Positions 3,040-10,938 are shown, counted from the stretch's first letter. The stretch is 10,938 bases of DNA from a virus (UHGV-1796162); one strand, 5' to 3'. Numbers and translations are program-made. The notes: generated from the letters alone by a model not told the origin.

Positions 3040-4821
3040 TTAAAGCTGCTTGTCAATATTATTTCGAATATCACCAAGAGATGTGTAACCGTACTGCTCA
3101 GAGTCACTAAAGACTAAACGTAAAGCACAAGCTGGGTGGTCAAGTGCATCTGCAAAGCTCTGGAATCCATAGCCATCTACAGCTTTCAACTTATCACCAT
3201 CCCACATAGGTGCTACACCACCAAAAGCAGACTTCTTAACACCACTATCTGTTTTAGGGTCTTTTGCAAGCATAATCTCTTTACCACCAATGCTTGCAAG
3301 AGTTGCTTTAACAGCAAATGCAAAGGTGTCACGAGTCATGTACTGGTAAGTGTAAGAGCCTACGCCAAACACTACGTTAGAGCTTGCAAAACCCATTTCA
3401 TACAGACGCTTCAGGATTTCGTTTGCACGTTCCAGCGTGATAGAGTCACCATAGATAAGGCCGATATGCTCATCCAGTACCTTAAACCCTTTAGAGTTAA
3501 TAGTTCCCCCAAAGATGTTATACAGTGTCTTGATAGCTCCATCAATCTCCGCTACAGGACGTGTTACAACGTTTGCAGAACCAACCATATAAGCATTTTT
3601 CAACAGCACTGTATCAGCAACTTCAAAGTCTTCTCTGTCAACAACCATTTCGTAGCCTTCTGACAGTAGCCATCCAGCAATACCATAATTGATGTTTTCA
3701 AGCTTCATGTTCAGGACAGAGTTCAGCATTGTGTCACTTGCCTCTAGCTTGCTTAGGTGCTCGTAATAAGCCTTCTTAGCACACTCTAAGTGAATTGCTT
3801 TATAACCTGTGACAATATGTACAGGGTCTCCAGAGTCAGGGCGAATTACCAGTTTGCCATCACGTTCCATAATTTCTTTACGGAGTGCTGGTAAGATTTC
3901 TGACACAGTTCTCCAGAAGTTGTAAGTATCTGAAACAATACTTGCAATACCAGTTGGGTAAGTTTCTGTTAAGAAACGACGGAAGGTTTGTAACTCACCT
4001 TTAAAGCGTCTTTCTTCTTCAATCAGTTCATTACCACCTTCCCAAGCAATGTTTGCACACATTACAGAGTGTTCAGTGGCTGGTACAGAGCTACCAATAT
4101 CAGAAATTGGGTAAGACTGTCCATAGATGCGTTTAGCCGTGTATACAGCAGGAAAACTGTCAGTTCCTTTAAAGCTGGTTAAGTGACCTACAGCGTTAAA
4201 TGCGTCATCAGTAAAGCCGGACATACCACGCATAGCAAAGTCATGACACTGATAAGGTAAATGTAAGTCGTTGTCACAAGTAAGGTCAGCCCACTTCTTA
4301 CAGATGCGTTTATAGTGCAATGCAATAGTTGCAATGGTACAAGCTTTCCAAATCTCAGCAGAGAAAGCATCTTCCAGATACCCTGCTACCCAATGGAAAC
4401 CTGAAACAGTGTTCTGGAAGACAATCATTGGGACACGCATTGGAACAACTGTGCCTTCTTCTACAGCGTATACTTCGACTGGCAGATAACCTAAGTCGTG
4501 AAGTGCTTCCCAATGCTCTCGACCAATAGCATCTTTGCCCAGAACACCGTTCATGACTTCTAAGATTTCGTCAATTGCTTCTTTTTTGTCACGTTCAAAG
4601 AAAGTGGCGTTCCAATGGTCTATCAAGTAATCTTTAACAAAACGTTGAATACCAAAAGCCACTACACCGTCAATTGCCAAAGGGCTGTTAAACCATTTGT
4701 CACTACGTGGTGTCAGGTTCAACATAAGATATTGCGTAGCATCTGGATACTGATATATATGTGATGCCTTGTAAGCATCTGCGTTTAAACCTGCTGGCAC
4801 TGCATAAAGTGATTTAGTCAT
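3040..4821 (-). CDS. nadV: Nicotinamide phosphoribosyltransferase family protein (Nampt/NadV-like; alternatively a nicotinamide ADP-ribose transferase of the phage NAD+ reconstitution pathway), 593 aa from the ATG
   Basis: The track ORF starts at TTG (4839); I place the start at ATG 4819..4821 (MTKSLYAVPAGL...) preceded by TGAGAGAGATTAAAAAG. Family motifs recalled from human NAMPT: NADAYKASHIYQYP (vs ATDSYKVTHYKQYP), LVIRPDSGDP (vs LIIRPDSGNP), INSKGFKVLDEHIGLIYGDS (vs [20 protein letters not shown]). It is ~100 aa longer than canonical Nampt. Confidence 0.85.
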   Translation of the reverse strand: MTKSLYAVPAGLNADAYKASHIYQYPDATQYLMLNLTPRSDKWFNSPLAIDGVVAFGIQRFVKDYLIDHWNATFFERDKKEAIDEILEVMNGVLGKDAIGREHWEALHDLGYLPVEVYAVEEGTVVPMRVPMIVFQNTVSGFHWVAGYLEDAFSAEIWKACTIATIALHYKRICKKWADLTCDNDLHLPYQCHDFAMRGMSGFTDDAFNAVGHLTSFKGTDSFPAVYTAKRIYGQSYPISDIGSSVPATEHSVMCANIAWEGGNELIEEERRFKGELQTFRRFLTETYPTGIASIVSDTYNFWRTVSEILPALRKEIMERDGKLVIRPDSGDPVHIVTGYKAIHLECAKKAYYEHLSKLEASDTMLNSVLNMKLENINYGIAGWLLSEGYEMVVDREDFEVADTVLLKNAYMVGSANVVTRPVAEIDGAIKTLYNIFGGTINSKGFKVLDEHIGLIYGDSITLERANEILKRLYEMGFASSNVVFGVGSYTYQYMTRDTFAFAVKATLASIGGKEIMLAKDPKTDSGVKKSAFGGVAPMWDGDKLKAVDGYGFQSFADALDHPACALRLVFSDSEQYGYTSLGDIRNNIDKQL

Positions 4822-4842
4822 CTTTTTAATCTCTCTCAAAAT

Positions 4843-4868: not shown

Positions 4869-5750
4869 TTAATCAAGGTTTGCTACAGTAACTTGACCAT
4901 AATGTGTTAAGCCACGGTCTTTAGCTTCCCCTAAAGAGTTTGTAGTGTAAATGTGGTCAATACCATTGTCAAGTAAGTTTTCAACACCTTTAGAGAAAAT
5001 ACCATGAGTTACATAAAGTTCCACACGTTTTGCACCTGCTTCACGAAGATGTTTTGCTGCTTCTACGAAGGTTCGACCACCATCACAGATATCATCAAGA
5101 ATCATGACGGTTTTATCGGTCAAATCAACATCATCAAGGATTCGCATACCAGTAATTTCACCAGTCTTAAGGTTACGCACTTTAGACATTATGATATATG
5201 GTTTATCCACCTCTTTAGCGGCATCTTTAGTCTTCTTAGCTGCACCTGCATCTGGGGCTACTAAGAAATCAATGCGCGGGTCACTTGCAAAGTGTACTGC
5301 AATTTCCTTTTGAGGAATACTCTGGAAGCAGTTAAATAGGTTATCTGGTACATAACTGTGAGGGTCAACTGCACAGACTGCACCAAATCCCATTGCATTC
5401 ACCTGCTTAGCAAAAACCTTTAAAGCTGCTGCATCACCTTTAAACATGTGACGGTCATATCGTGCATTTGGTAAGTAGTAAAAAATGACAGTCTTTAAGG
5501 CATATTCATGAGGAACTAAATCATCAATTGCTTCTTTAGCAAGTGCCACAGCAAACAATGTGTCTTTATCATAACCTTTTACAATCATAATCACATTGTT
5601 GATGGATGATGCTGCGTGAGCAGTAAAGTCAACAAGCTCTTGTGAAAAGTGTCCACCAATCTCACCAGAAGGGAACTGGATGAGGTTAAACTCTTCTTCA
5701 TGAGACCCTTTTGTCGGTGAATGAATTATAACACGGATAGATGTTTTCAT
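4869..5750 (-). CDS. prs: Ribose-phosphate pyrophosphokinase (PRPP synthetase, Prs) family protein; alternatively an ADP-ribose pyrophosphokinase, 293 aa from the ATG
   Basis: The track ORF starts at TTG; I place the start at ATG 5748..5750 (MKTSIRVIIHSP...) preceded by TGAGAGTAAAACT. Type I PRTase ribose-phosphate binding loop VMILDDICDGGRTF (cf. Prs ...DD.IDTGGT) and a DPHS segment resembling the Prs DLHA region. Size matches Prs (~300 aa). Confidence 0.8.
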   Translation of the reverse strand: MKTSIRVIIHSPTKGSHEEEFNLIQFPSGEIGGHFSQELVDFTAHAASSINNVIMIVKGYDKDTLFAVALAKEAIDDLVPHEYALKTVIFYYLPNARYDRHMFKGDAAALKVFAKQVNAMGFGAVCAVDPHSYVPDNLFNCFQSIPQKEIAVHFASDPRIDFLVAPDAGAAKKTKDAAKEVDKPYIIMSKVRNLKTGEITGMRILDDVDLTDKTVMILDDICDGGRTFVEAAKHLREAGAKRVELYVTHGIFSKGVENLLDNGIDHIYTTNSLGEAKDRGLTHYGQVTVANLD

Positions 5751-5760
5751 AGTTTTACTC

Positions 5761-6039
5761 TCAATCAAAAGTTACGAATGTCACAGCCATAGCTGTTTTG
5801 CATTTTTGTGGATTCACAATGTGATAGATTACTGAACAGTTACCTGTGCTATCTGGTACTGGTTTTGTCCAAGTGCGTTCAACATTTGGTTCACCTAGTT
5901 CTTTGTAGAATCCGTTTGTGTGACGGTCAATCATCTCAAGAGCTAATGGGTCTGGTATATGGCCACGAATCATATACATCTCACAACCATTTCCAGCATC
6001 ACTTATTAGGTCTTTTATTTCCCAATCTGCTTTAGCCAT
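5761..6039 (-). CDS. Hypothetical protein, 92 aa
   Basis: ORF track 5761..6039. Its ATG (6037..6039) overlaps the stop of ORF171, and its TGA stop is embedded in the RBS-like TGAGAGT of the Prs-like gene, so it looks translationally coupled within the operon. No motif recognised. Confidence 0.55.
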   Translation of the reverse strand: MAKADWEIKDLISDAGNGCEMYMIRGHIPDPLALEMIDRHTNGFYKELGEPNVERTWTKPVPDSTGNCSVIYHIVNPQKCKTAMAVTFVTFD

Positions 6040-6598: not shown

Positions 6599-6910
6599 TT
6601 ACTGAACTAATTTCAATACTTTGAAGAAACCTTCTTCACCAATTGCATCATAGACCTTTTCAGTTGGCTTGATAAGGTTGTTCAAGCAGATTATTTTCTT
6701 ACGTTTCTTATCATAAGAAAGTTTAAGCTGCTTCAGCTCTTTATCATCTTCAGGGTGCTCATTGTACATCTTTACAGCCTCTTTGAAGCTAATGTAACCG
6801 CCGCCAAGAGTAAGGAAACCTGTGCCACAATAATGTGAATTGTGCTTATCAGCCATAAACTGACACAGAATAGAAATCTGAATTTTACGGGTGTTATAAA
6901 TCTTTTCCAT
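6599..6910 (-). CDS. Hypothetical protein, 103 aa
   Basis: ORF track 6599..6910. ATG at 6908..6910 preceded by GTAAGGATAACCAAA (RBS AAGGA). No motif recognised. Confidence 0.6.
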   Translation of the reverse strand: MEKIYNTRKIQISILCQFMADKHNSHYCGTGFLTLGGGYISFKEAVKMYNEHPEDDKELKQLKLSYDKKRKKIICLNNLIKPTEKVYDAIGEEGFFKVLKLVQ

Positions 6911-7194: not shown

Positions 7195-7473
7195 TTAAAG
7201 TTTAATACAGAACTGGTCTAGTTCTTCTTTTTCAATACCAACTTGAACATCTCCGTATGCTACGTCAGTGAAAAATGTCTGTCCATCATTAAATGCGCTT
7301 TCTGAATCAACGTGGAAAGTAACACGTTTAACAATCTCTGCTAGAGCTACTAACCCACTTTTCCCAAACTTCTCATGGGTCTTTACCATCCACTCATCAA
7401 GTGAGTTAATATTATAAGTCCACTTACCGGAGTAGCTACTCTGCTCTCCACTGACAGTCGCCTTGCCACCCAT
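7195..7473 (-). CDS. Hypothetical protein (about 92 aa if it starts at ATG 7471..7473; 64 aa if at ATG 7387..7389)
   Basis: Track ORF is 7195..7554. The internal ATG at 7471..7473 has a GGAGAAAAGAAT RBS but overlaps the nrdG 3' end by 38 nt in another frame. The ATG at 7387..7389 avoids the overlap but has a poorer RBS. Start is uncertain. Confidence 0.45.
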   Translation of the reverse strand: MGGKATVSGEQSSYSGKWTYNINSLDEWMVKTHEKFGKSGLVALAEIVKRVTFHVDSESAFNDGQTFFTDVAYGDVQVGIEKEELDQFCIKL

Positions 7474-7921
7474 ATTCTTTTCTCCACAAGTTTTGGTTGT
7501 CTGAACCACGATACGGTTTAACTGTTGGTTTAGATGAATCATACTTACCATCAATCACCACGTCAACATATTTCATCACATCTAAGTGAATCTTTTCGTG
7601 TAGTTGAAAACCTGTCCAGAGCCAGATAGACTTCTCTGGATAAACAGTTTTAATACGTTTGCATATGTTGGTAACCTCTTGAATATTTCTATCATCCAGA
7701 GGCTCTCCACCAAGTATCGACAACCCACTGATGGCCTCATCAGCCATTAACTTAATGATGCCGTAGAGGTTTGCATAAGTAAATACTTTACCAGCATTAA
7801 ACTTCCAAGACTCCCTGTTAAAGCATCCTTCACAGTGATGCTTACAACCAGCTACGAAGAGGCTTACACGAACCCCTTCACCATTAGCTGTGTCAAATGG
7901 TCGAATCTCCATGTAATTCAT
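7436..7921 (-). CDS. nrdG: Anaerobic ribonucleoside-triphosphate reductase activating protein (radical-SAM activase NrdG), 161 aa
   Basis: ORF track 7436..7921. Radical-SAM cluster motif CKHHCEGC (Cx3Cx2C) near the N-terminus. Overall resemblance to T4 NrdG as recalled (VSGC.H.C.GC..., ...VDGK...RGSSNQ...). ATG preceded by GGTGAGGTAACTAG. Confidence 0.85.
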   Translation of the reverse strand: MNYMEIRPFDTANGEGVRVSLFVAGCKHHCEGCFNRESWKFNAGKVFTYANLYGIIKLMADEAISGLSILGGEPLDDRNIQEVTNICKRIKTVYPEKSIWLWTGFQLHEKIHLDVMKYVDVVIDGKYDSSKPTVKPYRGSDNQNLWRKEYGWQGDCQWRAE

Positions 7922-7980: not shown

Positions 7981-8376
7981 TCACTCAAACACCACCTGAC
8001 AAGGAACCTGTTTAGTGATAAACTCTTCACAGTGCTCTTTAATAAAGTTTTGTAATGGTACACAATCTTGTGCGCAAGTCATTAGCATAACGTACTCTGG
8101 GTTCATGATGTTTTCAATGGTGTAGAAGACAACATCATCAGATAGTTCGTGACCATCCTCTCCAGACCAAGTTCCAGAGACTACAGCCAGTTTATCAAGT
8201 AATTCATTAGGTAATGCTACACCATCTTCTACAGAATCACTTAGAACGTTGTCGCTGATGTACAATGTGAAGACCGTGTGGAATGTTGAGTACCTTACGT
8301 GATTCTTTTCACAAGAGCCACACTCTGAGGCATAGTCTTTAATCCACTCTAACTGTTTTTGGTTCAACTTAATCAT
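7981..8376 (-). CDS. Hypothetical acidic, Cys-containing protein, 131 aa
   Basis: ORF track 7981..8376. The ATG at 8374..8376 overlaps the TGA of the upstream small ORF (ATGA overlap), suggesting translational coupling. Confidence 0.55.
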   Translation of the reverse strand: MIKLNQKQLEWIKDYASECGSCEKNHVRYSTFHTVFTLYISDNVLSDSVEDGVALPNELLDKLAVVSGTWSGEDGHELSDDVVFYTIENIMNPEYVMLMTCAQDCVPLQNFIKEHCEEFITKQVPCQVVFE

Positions 8377-8573
8377 AATTTCACCTTAGTTGGTAATGCA
8401 CTGAATGCTATAGCTAACCCTAAAAATGGTTTGAAGCATGACCATAAATCCATCTGACCATGATATGATAAACTCCATTGTGGGTCTGAAAAACCCCATA
8501 CCATAACACTAACCCCAAAGAAGAAGATTAGAATGTGGAGTATGTATATCATCGTTTTTGATATCTTAAACAT
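8373..8573 (-). CDS. Small predicted membrane protein, 66 aa
   Basis: ORF track 8373..8573. Hydrophobic stretches MIYILHILIFFFGVSVMVWGF and FLGLAIAFSAL. ATG preceded by TTGAGAGATAAGTTAAA. Confidence 0.5.
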   Translation of the reverse strand: MFKISKTMIYILHILIFFFGVSVMVWGFSDPQWSLSYHGQMDLWSCFKPFLGLAIAFSALPTKVKL

Positions 8574-8675
8574 TTTAACTTATCTCTCAATTCACAATAA
8601 GAGAGTCCTAAAAAGAACCCTAGTAAGGCAGAACCTATGAGCAACCCGATAATACTTGCTGCCATATCTAACATC

Positions 8676-8717
8676 CAATAAAAAGGTGATGTAAGCCTAT
8701 CAAGACCCACATCACCT
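8676..8717 (-). terminator. Probable intrinsic terminator downstream of nrdD
   Basis: On the minus strand: 10-bp stem AAGGTGATGT / ACATCACCTT (plus 8683..8692 and 8708..8717) followed by TTTTATT. The loop is long (15 nt), so confidence is moderate. Confidence 0.5.
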
Positions 8718-8726
8718 TGTCAAGTT

Positions 8727-9674
8727 TTACATAGAAATCCTATCCTTAATTTCTGCCATCTTAGCGTCATTCATTCGAGACTGGCCTTTAATTTTCGTGA
8801 ATGACAAGTACCCACACACCCTGTTAATCACAGAGATATCATGTGAATGGCAAACCTCACATTCTTCAACATCAGCCTTTGGTCTGTTACCACAATGTTC
8901 ACAGATTGCTAAGTCAAAGTTAAGTCCCTGATAGAAACCTTTCAACATACCTCTCGTAATACAACTTTTAAGTGCTGGCAAGTTTTCTGGGTTAGCTACC
9001 CTTACATACTGGATTCTACCACCTCTACAGATATGGAAGAAGGGTTCTTCTAAGTCCTGCTTCTCAAATGGTGTAATGTCTGCTGCAACATTCATATGGA
9101 AACTGTTTGTAAAGTATTCCTTATCAGAAACACCTTTGATAACACCAAACATGTCTCTGAACTGTTTTAACTGAGTTCCACAAAGTGATTCTGCTGGAGT
9201 ACCATAGACAGCATATAAGAATCCATCTTCATTTTTAAACTCTTCAGTTTTCATGTTAATGTATGCCAGAACATCGTATGTAAAACTACAGCTTCCAACT
9301 TCATGAAGCCGTTTACCTTCAGCAAGAACAGATAGCTCATCAAGCGCAGTAACCCCAAAAGAAGCTGTGAAGGACTTCACAATATCCCAACCAACCCTGT
9401 CAGTAGGATTCTTAGTTCCTTTATACAGACCACCTTGTGTAAATGCAAGAGGGTTAGAACTTGCTGGCATATTAGCAATCATTTCGTAGCGTTTCTTGTG
9501 GAAGCTGCGAATTATTTCTAGGTACTTATCAAGCTCTTTCCAGAAATCTAAACCATTCTCTTTAGAATACTGGTAAATCATTGGTAAGTTCAAAGATACA
9601 GCACCAATGTTAGCACGACCTACATAAAACTCTTCACCATATTCGTTATGGTATGGTGATAAAAATGCTCTACA
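8727..9674 (-). CDS. nrdD: Anaerobic ribonucleoside-triphosphate reductase NrdD, exon 2 (C-terminal ~315 aa including the glycyl-radical and zinc-ribbon region)
   Basis: C-terminus carries CEHCGNRP...CEVCHSHD (Zn ribbon) and RVCGYLSF (glycyl-radical motif). The reading frame is open upstream of the track start (9593) to an in-frame TAG at 9696..9698 and contains CRAFLSPY. The exon 2 start at 9674 is inferred from the intron 3' end (...CCTGAACAACAAG|TGT) and from the conserved junction SPMG|CRAFL. Confidence 0.8.
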   Translation of the reverse strand, partial: CRAFLSPYHNEYGEEFYVGRANIGAVSLNLPMIYQYSKENGLDFWKELDKYLEIIRSFHKKRYEMIANMPASSNPLAFTQGGLYKGTKNPTDRVGWDIVKSFTASFGVTALDELSVLAEGKRLHEVGSCSFTYDVLAYINMKTEEFKNEDGFLYAVYGTPAESLCGTQLKQFRDMFGVIKGVSDKEYFTNSFHMNVAADITPFEKQDLEEPFFHICRGGRIQYVRVANPENLPALKSCITRGMLKGFYQGLNFDLAICEHCGNRPKADVEECEVCHSHDISVINRVCGYLSFTKIKGQSRMNDAKMAEIKDRISM

Positions 9675-10416
9675 CTTGTTGTTCAGGTAAGTTCGCTAAG
9701 CTTACCCCGCTTTATTCAAGCTGCTTACTGTCGCCAGTAAGTCCAGACTATATCTTCTACTTATTTCTAAGTAGCGTACCATTTCGAGTCGCTTGACCCT
9801 ACACCGCTACATTCATCACGGTTAGTCGTTCGGCATTTAGATGTATTCAAACTCATATTCGAAGTTATTATGCTCTTTTACACCCTTCAATATTGAAGAG
9901 ATGGTCTTGCGATTGTGTCCAAGTATATTGGATAACTCTCGTATTGACTTAGTAACAATAACTTCCTTTGTCACTTTGTGTGTGGCTTTCACGGCATATG
10001 AACGCTTGTGGAACTTGTAACATCCGTTCTCATAACCCTCTTTAGCATTCTCAGAATGAGTACCCCATTCTAAGTTAGATGCGTGGTTATTTAGTTTGTT
10101 ATCGTCCTTATGTTTTACAATTGGAAGATTATTCGGGTTAGGTACATATTTCTCAGCAACTAACCTGTGGACATACATGTCACGATTCTTCTTACCGTAA
10201 AACCTCACTTTCATATACCCAGTGTTGGATTTCCACTGCGTAAGCTCTACACCATTTTCCCTAAAGACTTTTCCATCTTCAGTGACGTGATAGTTTGGCA
10301 TGTAAGACTCCTATGTTGTATAGTTTCTTACATCGTACATCATTTAGCACAGGATTGTCTACATCTGTAGAGTTTCCCTGTTTAGGCACGTTTTAGATGA
10401 GCTATAGAGCTTGTTA
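9675..10416 (-). mobile_element. Group I self-splicing intron (T4 td/nrdD-like, ~742 nt) interrupting nrdD and carrying a homing-endonuclease ORF
   Basis: Exon 1 ends ...ATGGGT followed by an immediate in-frame TAA (cf. T4 td 5' splice site ...GGGU|UAAUUGAGG). Conserved core-like elements on the minus strand: CCTAAACAGGGAAACTCTACAGATGTAGACAATCCTGTGCTAAAT at the 5' side; GGGTCAAGCGACTCGAAA, AGAAGATATAGTCTGG and GGGGTAAGCTTAGCGAACTTACCTGAACAACAAG at the 3' side. These closely resemble the T4 td intron as I recall it. Exact boundaries are +/- a few nt. Confidence 0.75.
9837..10301 (-). CDS. HNH family homing endonuclease (intron-encoded), 154 aa
   Basis: ORF track 9837..10301. HNH-type motif YVHRLVAEKYVPNPNNLPIVKHKDDNKLNNHASNLEWGTHSEN and a C-terminal helix-turn-helix-like IRELSNILGHNRKTISSILKG. 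ATG preceded by ATAGGAGTCTTAC. It lies wholly inside the intron. Confidence 0.8.
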   Translation of the reverse strand: MPNYHVTEDGKVFRENGVELTQWKSNTGYMKVRFYGKKNRDMYVHRLVAEKYVPNPNNLPIVKHKDDNKLNNHASNLEWGTHSENAKEGYENGCYKFHKRSYAVKATHKVTKEVIVTKSIRELSNILGHNRKTISSILKGVKEHNNFEYEFEYI

Positions 10417-10938
10417 ACCCATCGGTGAAATTACCTTGCCAGAACGCTCAAAAGCTTCTGCTACAGCACCATGACCAGATACACTTAAGAAATCTGGATA
10501 CATTGCTTTAGAGCAGCACTCAATAGCTTTACTGTACAGGTGGCCTTGACAGATATTCTCATTATGTCTCTTCTGGTCATAAATATAAACCAGTTTAGGG
10601 AATACAACAGGCTTCTTGCTCTTACCTTGTCCATTCATACGAACATCTAGGAGAGTACTTGCAATTATATATTGCAGTCGGTTATCTTCATTGGACATAT
10701 CTGAGTCAAGTAACCCGAATGTCAAAGTTGTGAATGCAAAATCCCCACGACTACAAGGTACAGTATTTAGTTTCATTTCAAGTGACTGGAAACCTTGAGT
10801 TAGCTCAATCTGTAGCTGCTCCATGACATAATTGTGGTAATGCTCTTTAGGAATACCATAAGATGCTGCTTTCTCAGCATGATAGCGTAGAGACTTCTTA
10901 GCATACGGTACAAGTACCTTATCAATCTCTGCTAAAGT
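10417..10938 (-). CDS. nrdD: Anaerobic ribonucleoside-triphosphate reductase NrdD, exon 1 (partial; the 5' end lies beyond the right edge of the window)
   Basis: The frame of track ORF 10414..10824 stays open, with no stop, up to position 10938 (TLAEIDKVLVPYAKKSLRYHAEKAASYGIPKEHYHNYVMEQ...). It ends ...KVISPMG immediately before the intron 5' splice site. Joining to exon 2 gives ...SPMGCRAFLSPY..., matching the conserved class III RNR active-site Cys region as I recall it. Confidence 0.8.

Follow-up and report, generated by a model that had tools for sequence, protein, structure and literature searches.

A predicted self-splicing group I intron with an HNH homing endonuclease reading frame in the nrdD gene of a Felixounavirus

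The DNA analyzed here, a 10,938-nucleotide (nt) stretch from the virus UHGV-1796162 (hereafter the window), carries all of its genes on the minus strand, including an nrdD gene whose reading frame is broken by a 742-nt insert. The first part of the frame is open from the window end at 10938 to 10417, where it reads ...AEAFERSGKVISPMG (...GKVISPMG), and its last codon, GGT (10419-10417), is followed directly by an in-frame TAA at 10416-10414. The nrdD frame restarts at 9674 with TGT AGA GCA TTT, that is CRAFLSPYHNEYGEEFYVGR... (CRAFLSPY), and runs to a stop at 8727. The insert between them measures exactly 742 nt, 10416..9675 on the minus strand, starting with TAACAAGCTC and finishing with ...AACAACAAG. 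The three parts are as follows.

10417..10938, minus strand: nrdD exon 1, cut by the window end and ending ...KVISPMG, with T10417 as the predicted 5′ splice-site U (from translation; Pfam NRDD positions 109-251)
9675..10416, minus strand: predicted group I intron of the T4-type subgroup IA2, 742 nt, from U10416 (TAACAAG...) to the terminal G at 9675
8727..9674, minus strand: nrdD exon 2, starting with TGT, the catalytic Cys codon (Pfam NRDD positions 264-560 and Gly_radical; PDB 1H78 alignment)

The two exons matched consecutive parts of the 562-position Pfam NRDD model (109-251 and 264-560), and exon 2 also matched Pfam Gly_radical, the glycyl-radical domain in the second half. The spliced protein aligned continuously with T4 NrdD (PDB 1H78) through ...VSPMGCRSFLS..., with the break falling between the equivalents of T4 Gly289 and Cys290, the catalytic Cys. 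The 600-nt junction spliced in silico aligned in one piece to the intronless nrdD of the Felixounavirus phages Felix O1 and KhF1, and because these alleles align uninterrupted across the junction, the insert boundaries are exact to the base. The initial annotation of this DNA, made from the sequence alone, had placed a break in the nrdD frame at 9675-10416, between ...KVISPMG (then TAA) and CRAFLSPY in the active-site Cys region; these coordinates proved exact to the base, and the break falls immediately 5′ of the active-site Cys codon.

The predicted exon junction of the ligated RNA reads ...CCGATGGGT/TGTAGAGC..., continuing as TGTAGAGCATTT. The spliced NrdD would be 714 amino acids (aa) long, a length taken from the homologue in Escherichia phage allfine (full exon 1, 399 codons), since the window end cuts exon 1. 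Both exons are open and 93-98% identical to uninterrupted alleles, with every conserved NrdD motif in place, the Cys and glycyl-radical domain among them; nrdG is retained downstream at 7436-7921. A start-codon scan found the first in-frame start of exon 2 only at codon 28 (TTG, 9593); GenBank records begin their second ‘nrdD’ coding sequence at this codon or four codons later. Because exon 1 meets TAA at once and exon 2 has no start before codon 28, splicing appears to be needed: without it, translation would miss the catalytic Cys together with 26 further conserved residues.

Both ends of the insert could be paired with a single internal guide.

10396..10410, minus strand: predicted internal guide sequence, 15 nt, with contiguous P10 and P1 parts that would hold both exon ends

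The predicted P1 is a 7-bp helix between GCUCAUC (intron nt 15-21, 10402-10396) and the end of exon 1, GAUGGGU (10423-10417); at the 5′ splice site, U10417 forms a U·G pair with intron nt 15, as is the case in all 11 introns compared. P10 is formed by intron nt 7-14, GCUCUAUA (10410-10403), with the first eight nt of exon 2, UGUAGAGC, in 8 bp, and the terminal G of the intron lies at 9675. In Vibrio phage F101, P10 covaries with the exon (GAUUGGCA with UGCCGAUC). A combined pairing of at least 15 bp was reached in 70 of 200,000 shuffles, with generous positional freedom allowed, and P1, P10, the U·G pair and the terminal G are kept in all Felixounavirus copies examined.

The catalytic core was predicted in two halves, separated by an open reading frame (ORF), with the following elements, all on the minus strand.

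10336..10390, minus strand: 5′ half of the predicted catalytic core (RNAalifold without input structure; Rfam partial match 10298-10381)
10390-10385, P3 5′ strand; 10381-10376 with 10354-10349, P4; 10371-10367 with 10362-10358, P5
10348-10347, P6 5′ strand; 10341-10336, P6a 5′ strand
9675..9845, minus strand: 3′ half of the predicted ribozyme (Rfam partial match 9724-9904, 33.1 bits, E 2e-6; RNAalifold; pair counts)
9845-9840, P6a 3′ strand; 9834-9833, P6 3′ strand; 9827-9823, P7 5′ strand
9822-9803, P7.1; 9799-9786, P7.2; both predicted and both covarying
9780-9775, P3 3′ strand; 9774-9757, P8; 9750-9746, P7 3′ strand
9741-9724, P9; 9706-9686, P9.2; 9675, terminal G

Eight cores were aligned, comprising two Felixounavirus variants, two from Vequintavirus, two from Vibrio phages, T4 td and T4 nrdD. 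Given no guidance, RNAalifold returned P1, P3, P4, P5, P6, P6a, P7.1, P7.2, P8, P9, and P9.2, with compensatory changes at 34 of the 65 pairs. When P7 was added (69 pairs), 95.8% of the alignment cells paired, compared with 34-41% when the 3′ partners were slid by 1-3 columns; 34 pairs had changed on both sides vs. 4-6 in the slid controls, and none of 500 shuffles reached the observed pairing values. The 3′ strand of P6a is at the same time the end of the endonuclease coding sequence, and the 5′ strand changes to match it in each lineage, so that this covariation seems especially telling. In the window copy, none of the core helices is disrupted. The P3-P8 core with its P3/P7 pseudoknot is present, the J8/7-P7 consensus being AAGAUAUAGUC and GAAGAUAUAGUCU aligning to the model consensus, as are P7.1 and P7.2 between P7 and the P3 3′ strand, a hallmark of subgroup IA. 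Assignment to IA2 was based on the absence of P2 and the presence of P7.1/P7.2 and P9.2. With the ORF taken out, the window core shares 72% identity with that of the T4 nrdD intron and 67% with that of T4 td, the two T4 cores being 72% identical to each other.

The ORF and a hairpin over its start lie in the loop between the two halves.

9837..10301, minus strand: putative HNH homing endonuclease ORF, 154 aa, I-HmuI-like, in the P6a loop, its last codons forming the P6a 3′ strand
10300..10333, minus strand: predicted hairpin AUGUAAGA...UCUUACAU, -9.8 kcal/mol, z = -2.2, enclosing AGGAG and pairing the AU of the start codon

A ribosome-binding site, AGGAG (10312-10308), precedes the ATG of the ORF by 6 nt. 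The product matched Pfam HNH_3 with 41.2 bits against a cut-off of 24.8 (E 1.3e-10), PHROG 59 (HNH endonuclease, E 1.3e-42), and, over residues 3-152, the I-HmuI structure PDB 1U3E (E 3.7e-9), with the H-K-D...N...N motif aligned. In detail, KHKDDNKLNNHASNLEWGTHSEN of the ORF aligned to DHKDGNKDNNLSTNLRWVTQKIN of I-HmuI, with the catalytic His and Asn retained. The hairpin may limit translation of the ORF, as reported for T4 intron ORFs. The window ORF stops four codons before its Vequintavirus and Vibrio homologues, at an in-frame TAA (ATC TAA ATG CCG AAC GAC TAA, 9837-9826), while the homologues end at the TAA inside the P7 strand (GAC TAA); by this comparison, the Felixounavirus enzyme appears to have lost its last four residues. 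Thus, three further proposals of the initial annotation agree with the present results: a group I intron in nrdD is supported by the splice sites, the guide sequence, the covarying fold and the Rfam scores of ORF-less alleles (below); its resemblance to the T4 td and nrdD intron cores reaches the level at which those two resemble each other; and the free-standing ORF with its own ribosome-binding site encodes an HNH, not a GIY-YIG, protein.

The distribution of the insert was examined by searching the 600-nt spliced junction against 50,697 phage records, of which 244 matched. An evenly spaced sample of 60 rows was read, and fell into three states, with one row (JN01, H128) left unassigned as a partial match at the record start.

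No insert: 600 nt in one piece, about 37 of the 60 rows (Felix O1, KhF1)
Intron without ORF: 316-nt insert, 6 of the 60 rows (REP6, EC6)
Intron with ORF: 742-nt insert, 16 of the 60 rows (allfine, Mushroom)

The full 742 nt was present in 61 records. The ORF-less alleles are about 99% identical to the window intron, and the 316-nt form is the same intron minus an in-frame 426-nt deletion of the ORF, which leaves the remnant ATG CCA AAT AAC ... TAA, a 12-codon ORF (MPNNFEYEFEYI, then stop). The identical deletion was found in all ORF-less Felixounavirus introns examined (REP6, L004 2001-2316; L019; EC6, L020), and the sequences point to a single deletion event, followed by spread, behind them.

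The window intron is 100% identical to that of the Felixounavirus phage allfine. The window itself is not allfine, as the identity over its whole length is only 96.3% and exon 2 differs; its source would be a Felix O1-like mosaic Felixounavirus related to allfine and identical to no record in the collection. At the start of exon 2 (9615-9674), 9 of 60 nt differ between the two, all from +9 onward, which places a boundary of recombination or co-conversion only a few bases into exon 2. The first eight exon-2 nt, TGTAGAGC, the P10 partner, go with the intron in every copy examined, while empty sites carry TGCAGAGC (Felix O1) or TGCCGAGC (KhF1) in their place. Presence or absence at one fixed site, together with variable flanks, is consistent with the pattern expected of homing with variable co-conversion tracts, and the synonymous differences in the empty sites might affect cleavage.

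The endonuclease content of the nrd cluster varies among close relatives: Salmonella phage Mushroom has an extra NUMOD3 homing endonuclease gene between nrdD and nrdG (L002 4255-4755), and no such NUMOD3 gene lies in the corresponding part of the window (8376-8727). Four records named ‘Campylobacter phage’, A132 (MG065664), A126 (MG065668), A147 (MG065644), and A140 (MG065674), hold a Felixounavirus or rV5-like nrdD with the intron at 97-99% identity; these records are probably mislabelled or contaminated assemblies.

Introns at the same site (...MG/CR...) were found in the Vequintavirus phages JEP1 and phita32, in ORF-less form on an IMG/VR contig (L013), and in Vibrio phages 1.084.O and F101. 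They share the identical insertion point and the architecture of the window intron, and the ORF-bearing copies carry a homologous HNH ORF (40-48% identity) in the same loop. They differ in that core identity is 66-73%, the ORFs are four codons longer, and JEP1 and phita32 have a second, upstream nrdD intron. The same-site introns are the true orthologues of the window intron. The presence of homologous intron-ORF units at the same site indicates that the unit is older than its presence in Felixounavirus. None of the same-site introns is annotated as an intron, except for a ‘Phage intron’ note on the HNH gene of JEP1.

The Vequintavirus nrdD thus holds two introns (JEP1, L010, MT740314, about 812-1692 and 1906-2667; likewise phita32, L035). 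One follows ...TSVNG, at a point about 10 codons downstream of that used by T4 sunY, and contains an HNH ORF of its own (L010 1033-1566); the other occupies the PMG/CR site, and the gene is annotated as three nrdD fragments. A 29-nt block, GACTAACCGTGATGAATGTAGCGGTGTAG, comprising the P7 5′ strand and P7.1 (window 9827-9799), is 100% identical in the nrdD introns of Felixounavirus, Vequintavirus, Vibrio phages and Mosigvirus, unlike all other helices of the compared nrdD introns, which covary freely. The block also occurs on uncultivated phage contigs (L025-L034), with intron-like blocks downstream and a flanking gene other than nrdD; most of the ORF-containing loci among these contigs gave no Rfam group I match at the gathering score. 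In 185,579 bacterial genomes, the block had only three matches. An HNH match in Proteus phage vB_PMG_YP1 was set aside as a free-standing gene outside nrdD.

From these sequence comparisons, we infer with a probability of about 0.92 that the insert belongs to the T4 td/nrdB/nrdD type (IA2) of group I introns, is mobile and self-splicing, and encodes a homing endonuclease, both splicing and endonuclease activity being predicted. Computation established the exact boundaries, the fold with its covariation, the guide pairings, the intact HNH motif and a presence/absence polymorphism with variable flanks. In the proposed pathway, the guide sequence would bind both exon ends, seven nt of exon 1 in P1 (with the U·G pair) and eight nt of exon 2 in P10, and an external guanosine held in P7 would attack after U10417. 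The released 3′-OH of exon 1 would then attack after the terminal G at 9675, and the ligated mRNA would encode the uninterrupted 714-aa NrdD, with ...SPMG joined to the catalytic CRAFL. Translation of the 154-aa I-HmuI-like enzyme would begin within the P6a loop, at the ribosome-binding site of the ORF; in a mixed infection, the enzyme would nick or cleave nrdD alleles that lack the intron, close to the insertion site, and recombinational repair would copy the intron, with a short flanking stretch of exon, into the recipient.

Several points weigh against this interpretation. The window copy gave no match to the Rfam group I intron model RF00028 at its gathering score of 50 bits; in E-value mode, it gave two collinear partial matches of 33.1 and 15.6 bits, either side of the ORF, both below 50. 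P7 is invariant across the eight cores, and hence uninformative alone, and the covariation set holds only eight sequences, two of them near-duplicates and two T4 introns of known structure. The endonuclease could be inactive, its ORF being four codons shorter than its homologues. Further, no spliced transcript, guanosine triphosphate labelling or cleavage assay for any Felixounavirus is reported in the literature searched (subscription journals were outside the search).

The Rfam result was nevertheless rejected as a refutation, because the partial matches are collinear, the ORF-less alleles pass and the controls fail alike. In detail, RF00028 scored 52.0 bits on REP6, 55.1 bits on L019, and 53.6 bits on EC6 (L020), all ORF-less Felixounavirus alleles above the gathering score, and 70.5 bits on the ORF-less Vequintavirus homologue. 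Among the T4 controls, td (40.3 bits) and nrdB (35.7 bits) fell below 50, and nrdD reached 105.3 bits. The T4 td and nrdB introns are proven self-splicing introns with the ORF in P6, while the ORF of T4 nrdD lies outside the modelled core. The low score of the window copy is therefore attributed to the 490-nt insertion in its P6a loop, and not to a defective ribozyme. The covariance-model search that had been suggested as a check thus came out divided, with the window copy failing it (33 vs. 50 bits) and the ORF-less alleles of the same intron passing (52-55 bits).

The same locus could be read as genes-in-pieces, in which a free-standing HNH gene splits nrdD and the halves are translated separately and reassemble with no RNA splicing. 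GenBank records, which annotate two nrdD coding sequences plus an HNH gene, and the literature wording ‘split gene interrupted by a homing endonuclease’ (PMC4837284) both lean this way, and there is a precedent in Aeromonas phage Aeh1, whose nrdA is split by mobE and whose halves are reported to form an active enzyme (cited in PMC3653736). However, about 277 nt of conserved, covarying ribozyme surround the ORF and persist in alleles that lack it, the guide sequence pairs with both exon ends, and exon 2 has neither a start codon nor a ribosome-binding site at the junction, its first possible start being 27 codons in; this makes the genes-in-pieces reading very improbable. An intein or other protein-level insertion, a natural thought given that phage ribonucleotide reductase genes often carry inteins (PMC3653736), is excluded by the in-frame TAA directly after the last exon-1 codon; the HNH ORF also has its own ribosome-binding site and start, and the ORF-less alleles keep 316 nt of non-coding RNA.

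A group I intron could also be present in decayed form, splicing poorly or not at all, with nrdD effectively a pseudogene and the phages relying on aerobic NrdAB. That nrdD is dispensable in some conditions, that a class Ia nrdB lies immediately upstream in allfine and Mushroom, that the ORF is deleted in about 10% of genomes, as if decay were under way, and that the window copy scores under the Rfam gathering score would all fit. The core helices, on the other hand, are all intact in the window copy, with 95.8% of alignment cells pairing, and the preserved P1, P10, U·G pair and terminal G of the Felixounavirus copies examined likewise speak against decay, as do the open exons with all NrdD motifs and the retained nrdG (7436-7921). 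Decay on this scale is very unlikely. Open exons at 93-98% identity, together with the kept nrdG, argue against both genes-in-pieces and a dead gene, and the evidence taken together favors a functional self-splicing intron.

The Felix O1 genome paper reported no introns in Felix O1 (PMC3185647), which is correct for that phage, its nrdD being intronless, and untrue for roughly a third of the genus. Published accounts of the Felixounavirus locus speak of a split nrdD with a homing endonuclease interrupting it (PMC4837284, PMC3728262), and none in the searchable literature describes a group I intron in Felixounavirus nrdD. Dozens of Felixounavirus records, as well as Vequintavirus and Vibrio phage records, show two truncated nrdD fragments and a stray HNH gene; the proper description would be one nrdD gene with a group I intron. 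The misannotation affects gene counts, core-gene phylogenies and the safety dossiers of Salmonella and E. coli biocontrol phages. Within one genus and at one site, three stages of the homing life cycle would be represented, namely empty, intron with ORF, and intron with the ORF deleted, which makes the genus a suitable natural setting in which to study homing and co-conversion beyond the T-even phages. The understanding of how group I introns or HNH enzymes work is unchanged; this is a typical T4-family intron, largely unannotated, that would not surprise a specialist.

Elsewhere in the window lie genes for a ribose-phosphate pyrophosphokinase-like protein (4869-5768) and a nicotinamide phosphoribosyltransferase (3040-4839), and rIIA (98-2464), the latter assigned by homology to allfine. 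A 103-aa ORF at 6599-6910 (minus strand) has DUF7390 as its sole Pfam match; allfine_92 (312 nt, 103 aa), from the corresponding region of allfine, is labelled ‘HNH endonuclease’, its relation to the window ORF being one of position.

Among known systems, the T4 nrdD (sunY) intron with I-TevII is the nearest by host gene. Both belong to the IA2 family, lack P2 and are 72% identical in the core; they also have in common the P7.1 loop UGAUGAAUGUA and the P9.2...UGAACA tail, and the P1 guide part GCUCAU is nearly the same. Located with the PDB T4 NrdD sequence, the T4 intron lies after nt 538 of the coding sequence, at codon 180 (AYE/YEV), and its ORF encodes a GIY-YIG enzyme in the P9.1 loop, in contrast to the HNH ORF in P6a of the window intron. 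A common site was therefore rejected, since the window site (the Gly289/Cys290 equivalent) is 110 codons downstream. Neither of the two origins offered in the initial annotation was upheld: the intron is not at a site similar to that of T4 nrdD, and, instead of an HNH invasion of the T4 nrdD intron, the data indicate a separate IA2 lineage, with its ORF in P6a where I-TevII sits in P9.1, and with same-site homologues elsewhere.

A more speculative, and on balance doubtful, possibility is that a sunY-like nrdD intron moved to a second position within the gene, for instance by reverse splicing, and so gave rise to the Cys-site intron, the new position having been chosen because its 5′ flank AUGGGU mimics the original P1 target AUGAGU. 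This would be supported by the P1 guide part GCUCAU(G), which is common to T4 nrdD and the same-site introns of JEP1 and F101, and by a core identity to sunY (72%) no lower than that between any two T4 introns. If true, nrdD would offer a natural, datable case of ectopic group I transposition, followed by the gain of a different endonuclease in a different loop.

Compared with T4 td (I-TevI) and nrdB (I-TevIII), the window intron is of the same family (core 67% to td), and it shares with them an ORF in the P6/P6a loop whose 3′ end overlaps the P6a/P6 3′ strand, and an Rfam score below gathering for the same reason. They differ in host gene and site; in addition, td possesses a P2 hairpin, which the window intron lacks, and I-TevI is a GIY-YIG enzyme. 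The T4 nrdB intron likewise carries an HNH enzyme (I-TevIII, with the active form in RB3); I-TevIII is described in PMC1865063 as a zinc-finger HNH enzyme that cuts as a dimer, whereas the window ORF resembles the monomeric, nicking I-HmuI. I-HmuI itself, from the DNA polymerase intron of Bacillus phage SPO1 (PDB 1U3E), gives the best match among solved structures (E 3.7e-9, full length); it too is encoded by a phage group I intron, and both its H-K-D-x-N-K...N-N...N-L-x-W...N motif and its C-terminal DNA-binding region align with the window protein. The two differ in host gene and target, and nicking, known for I-HmuI, is predicted for the window enzyme.

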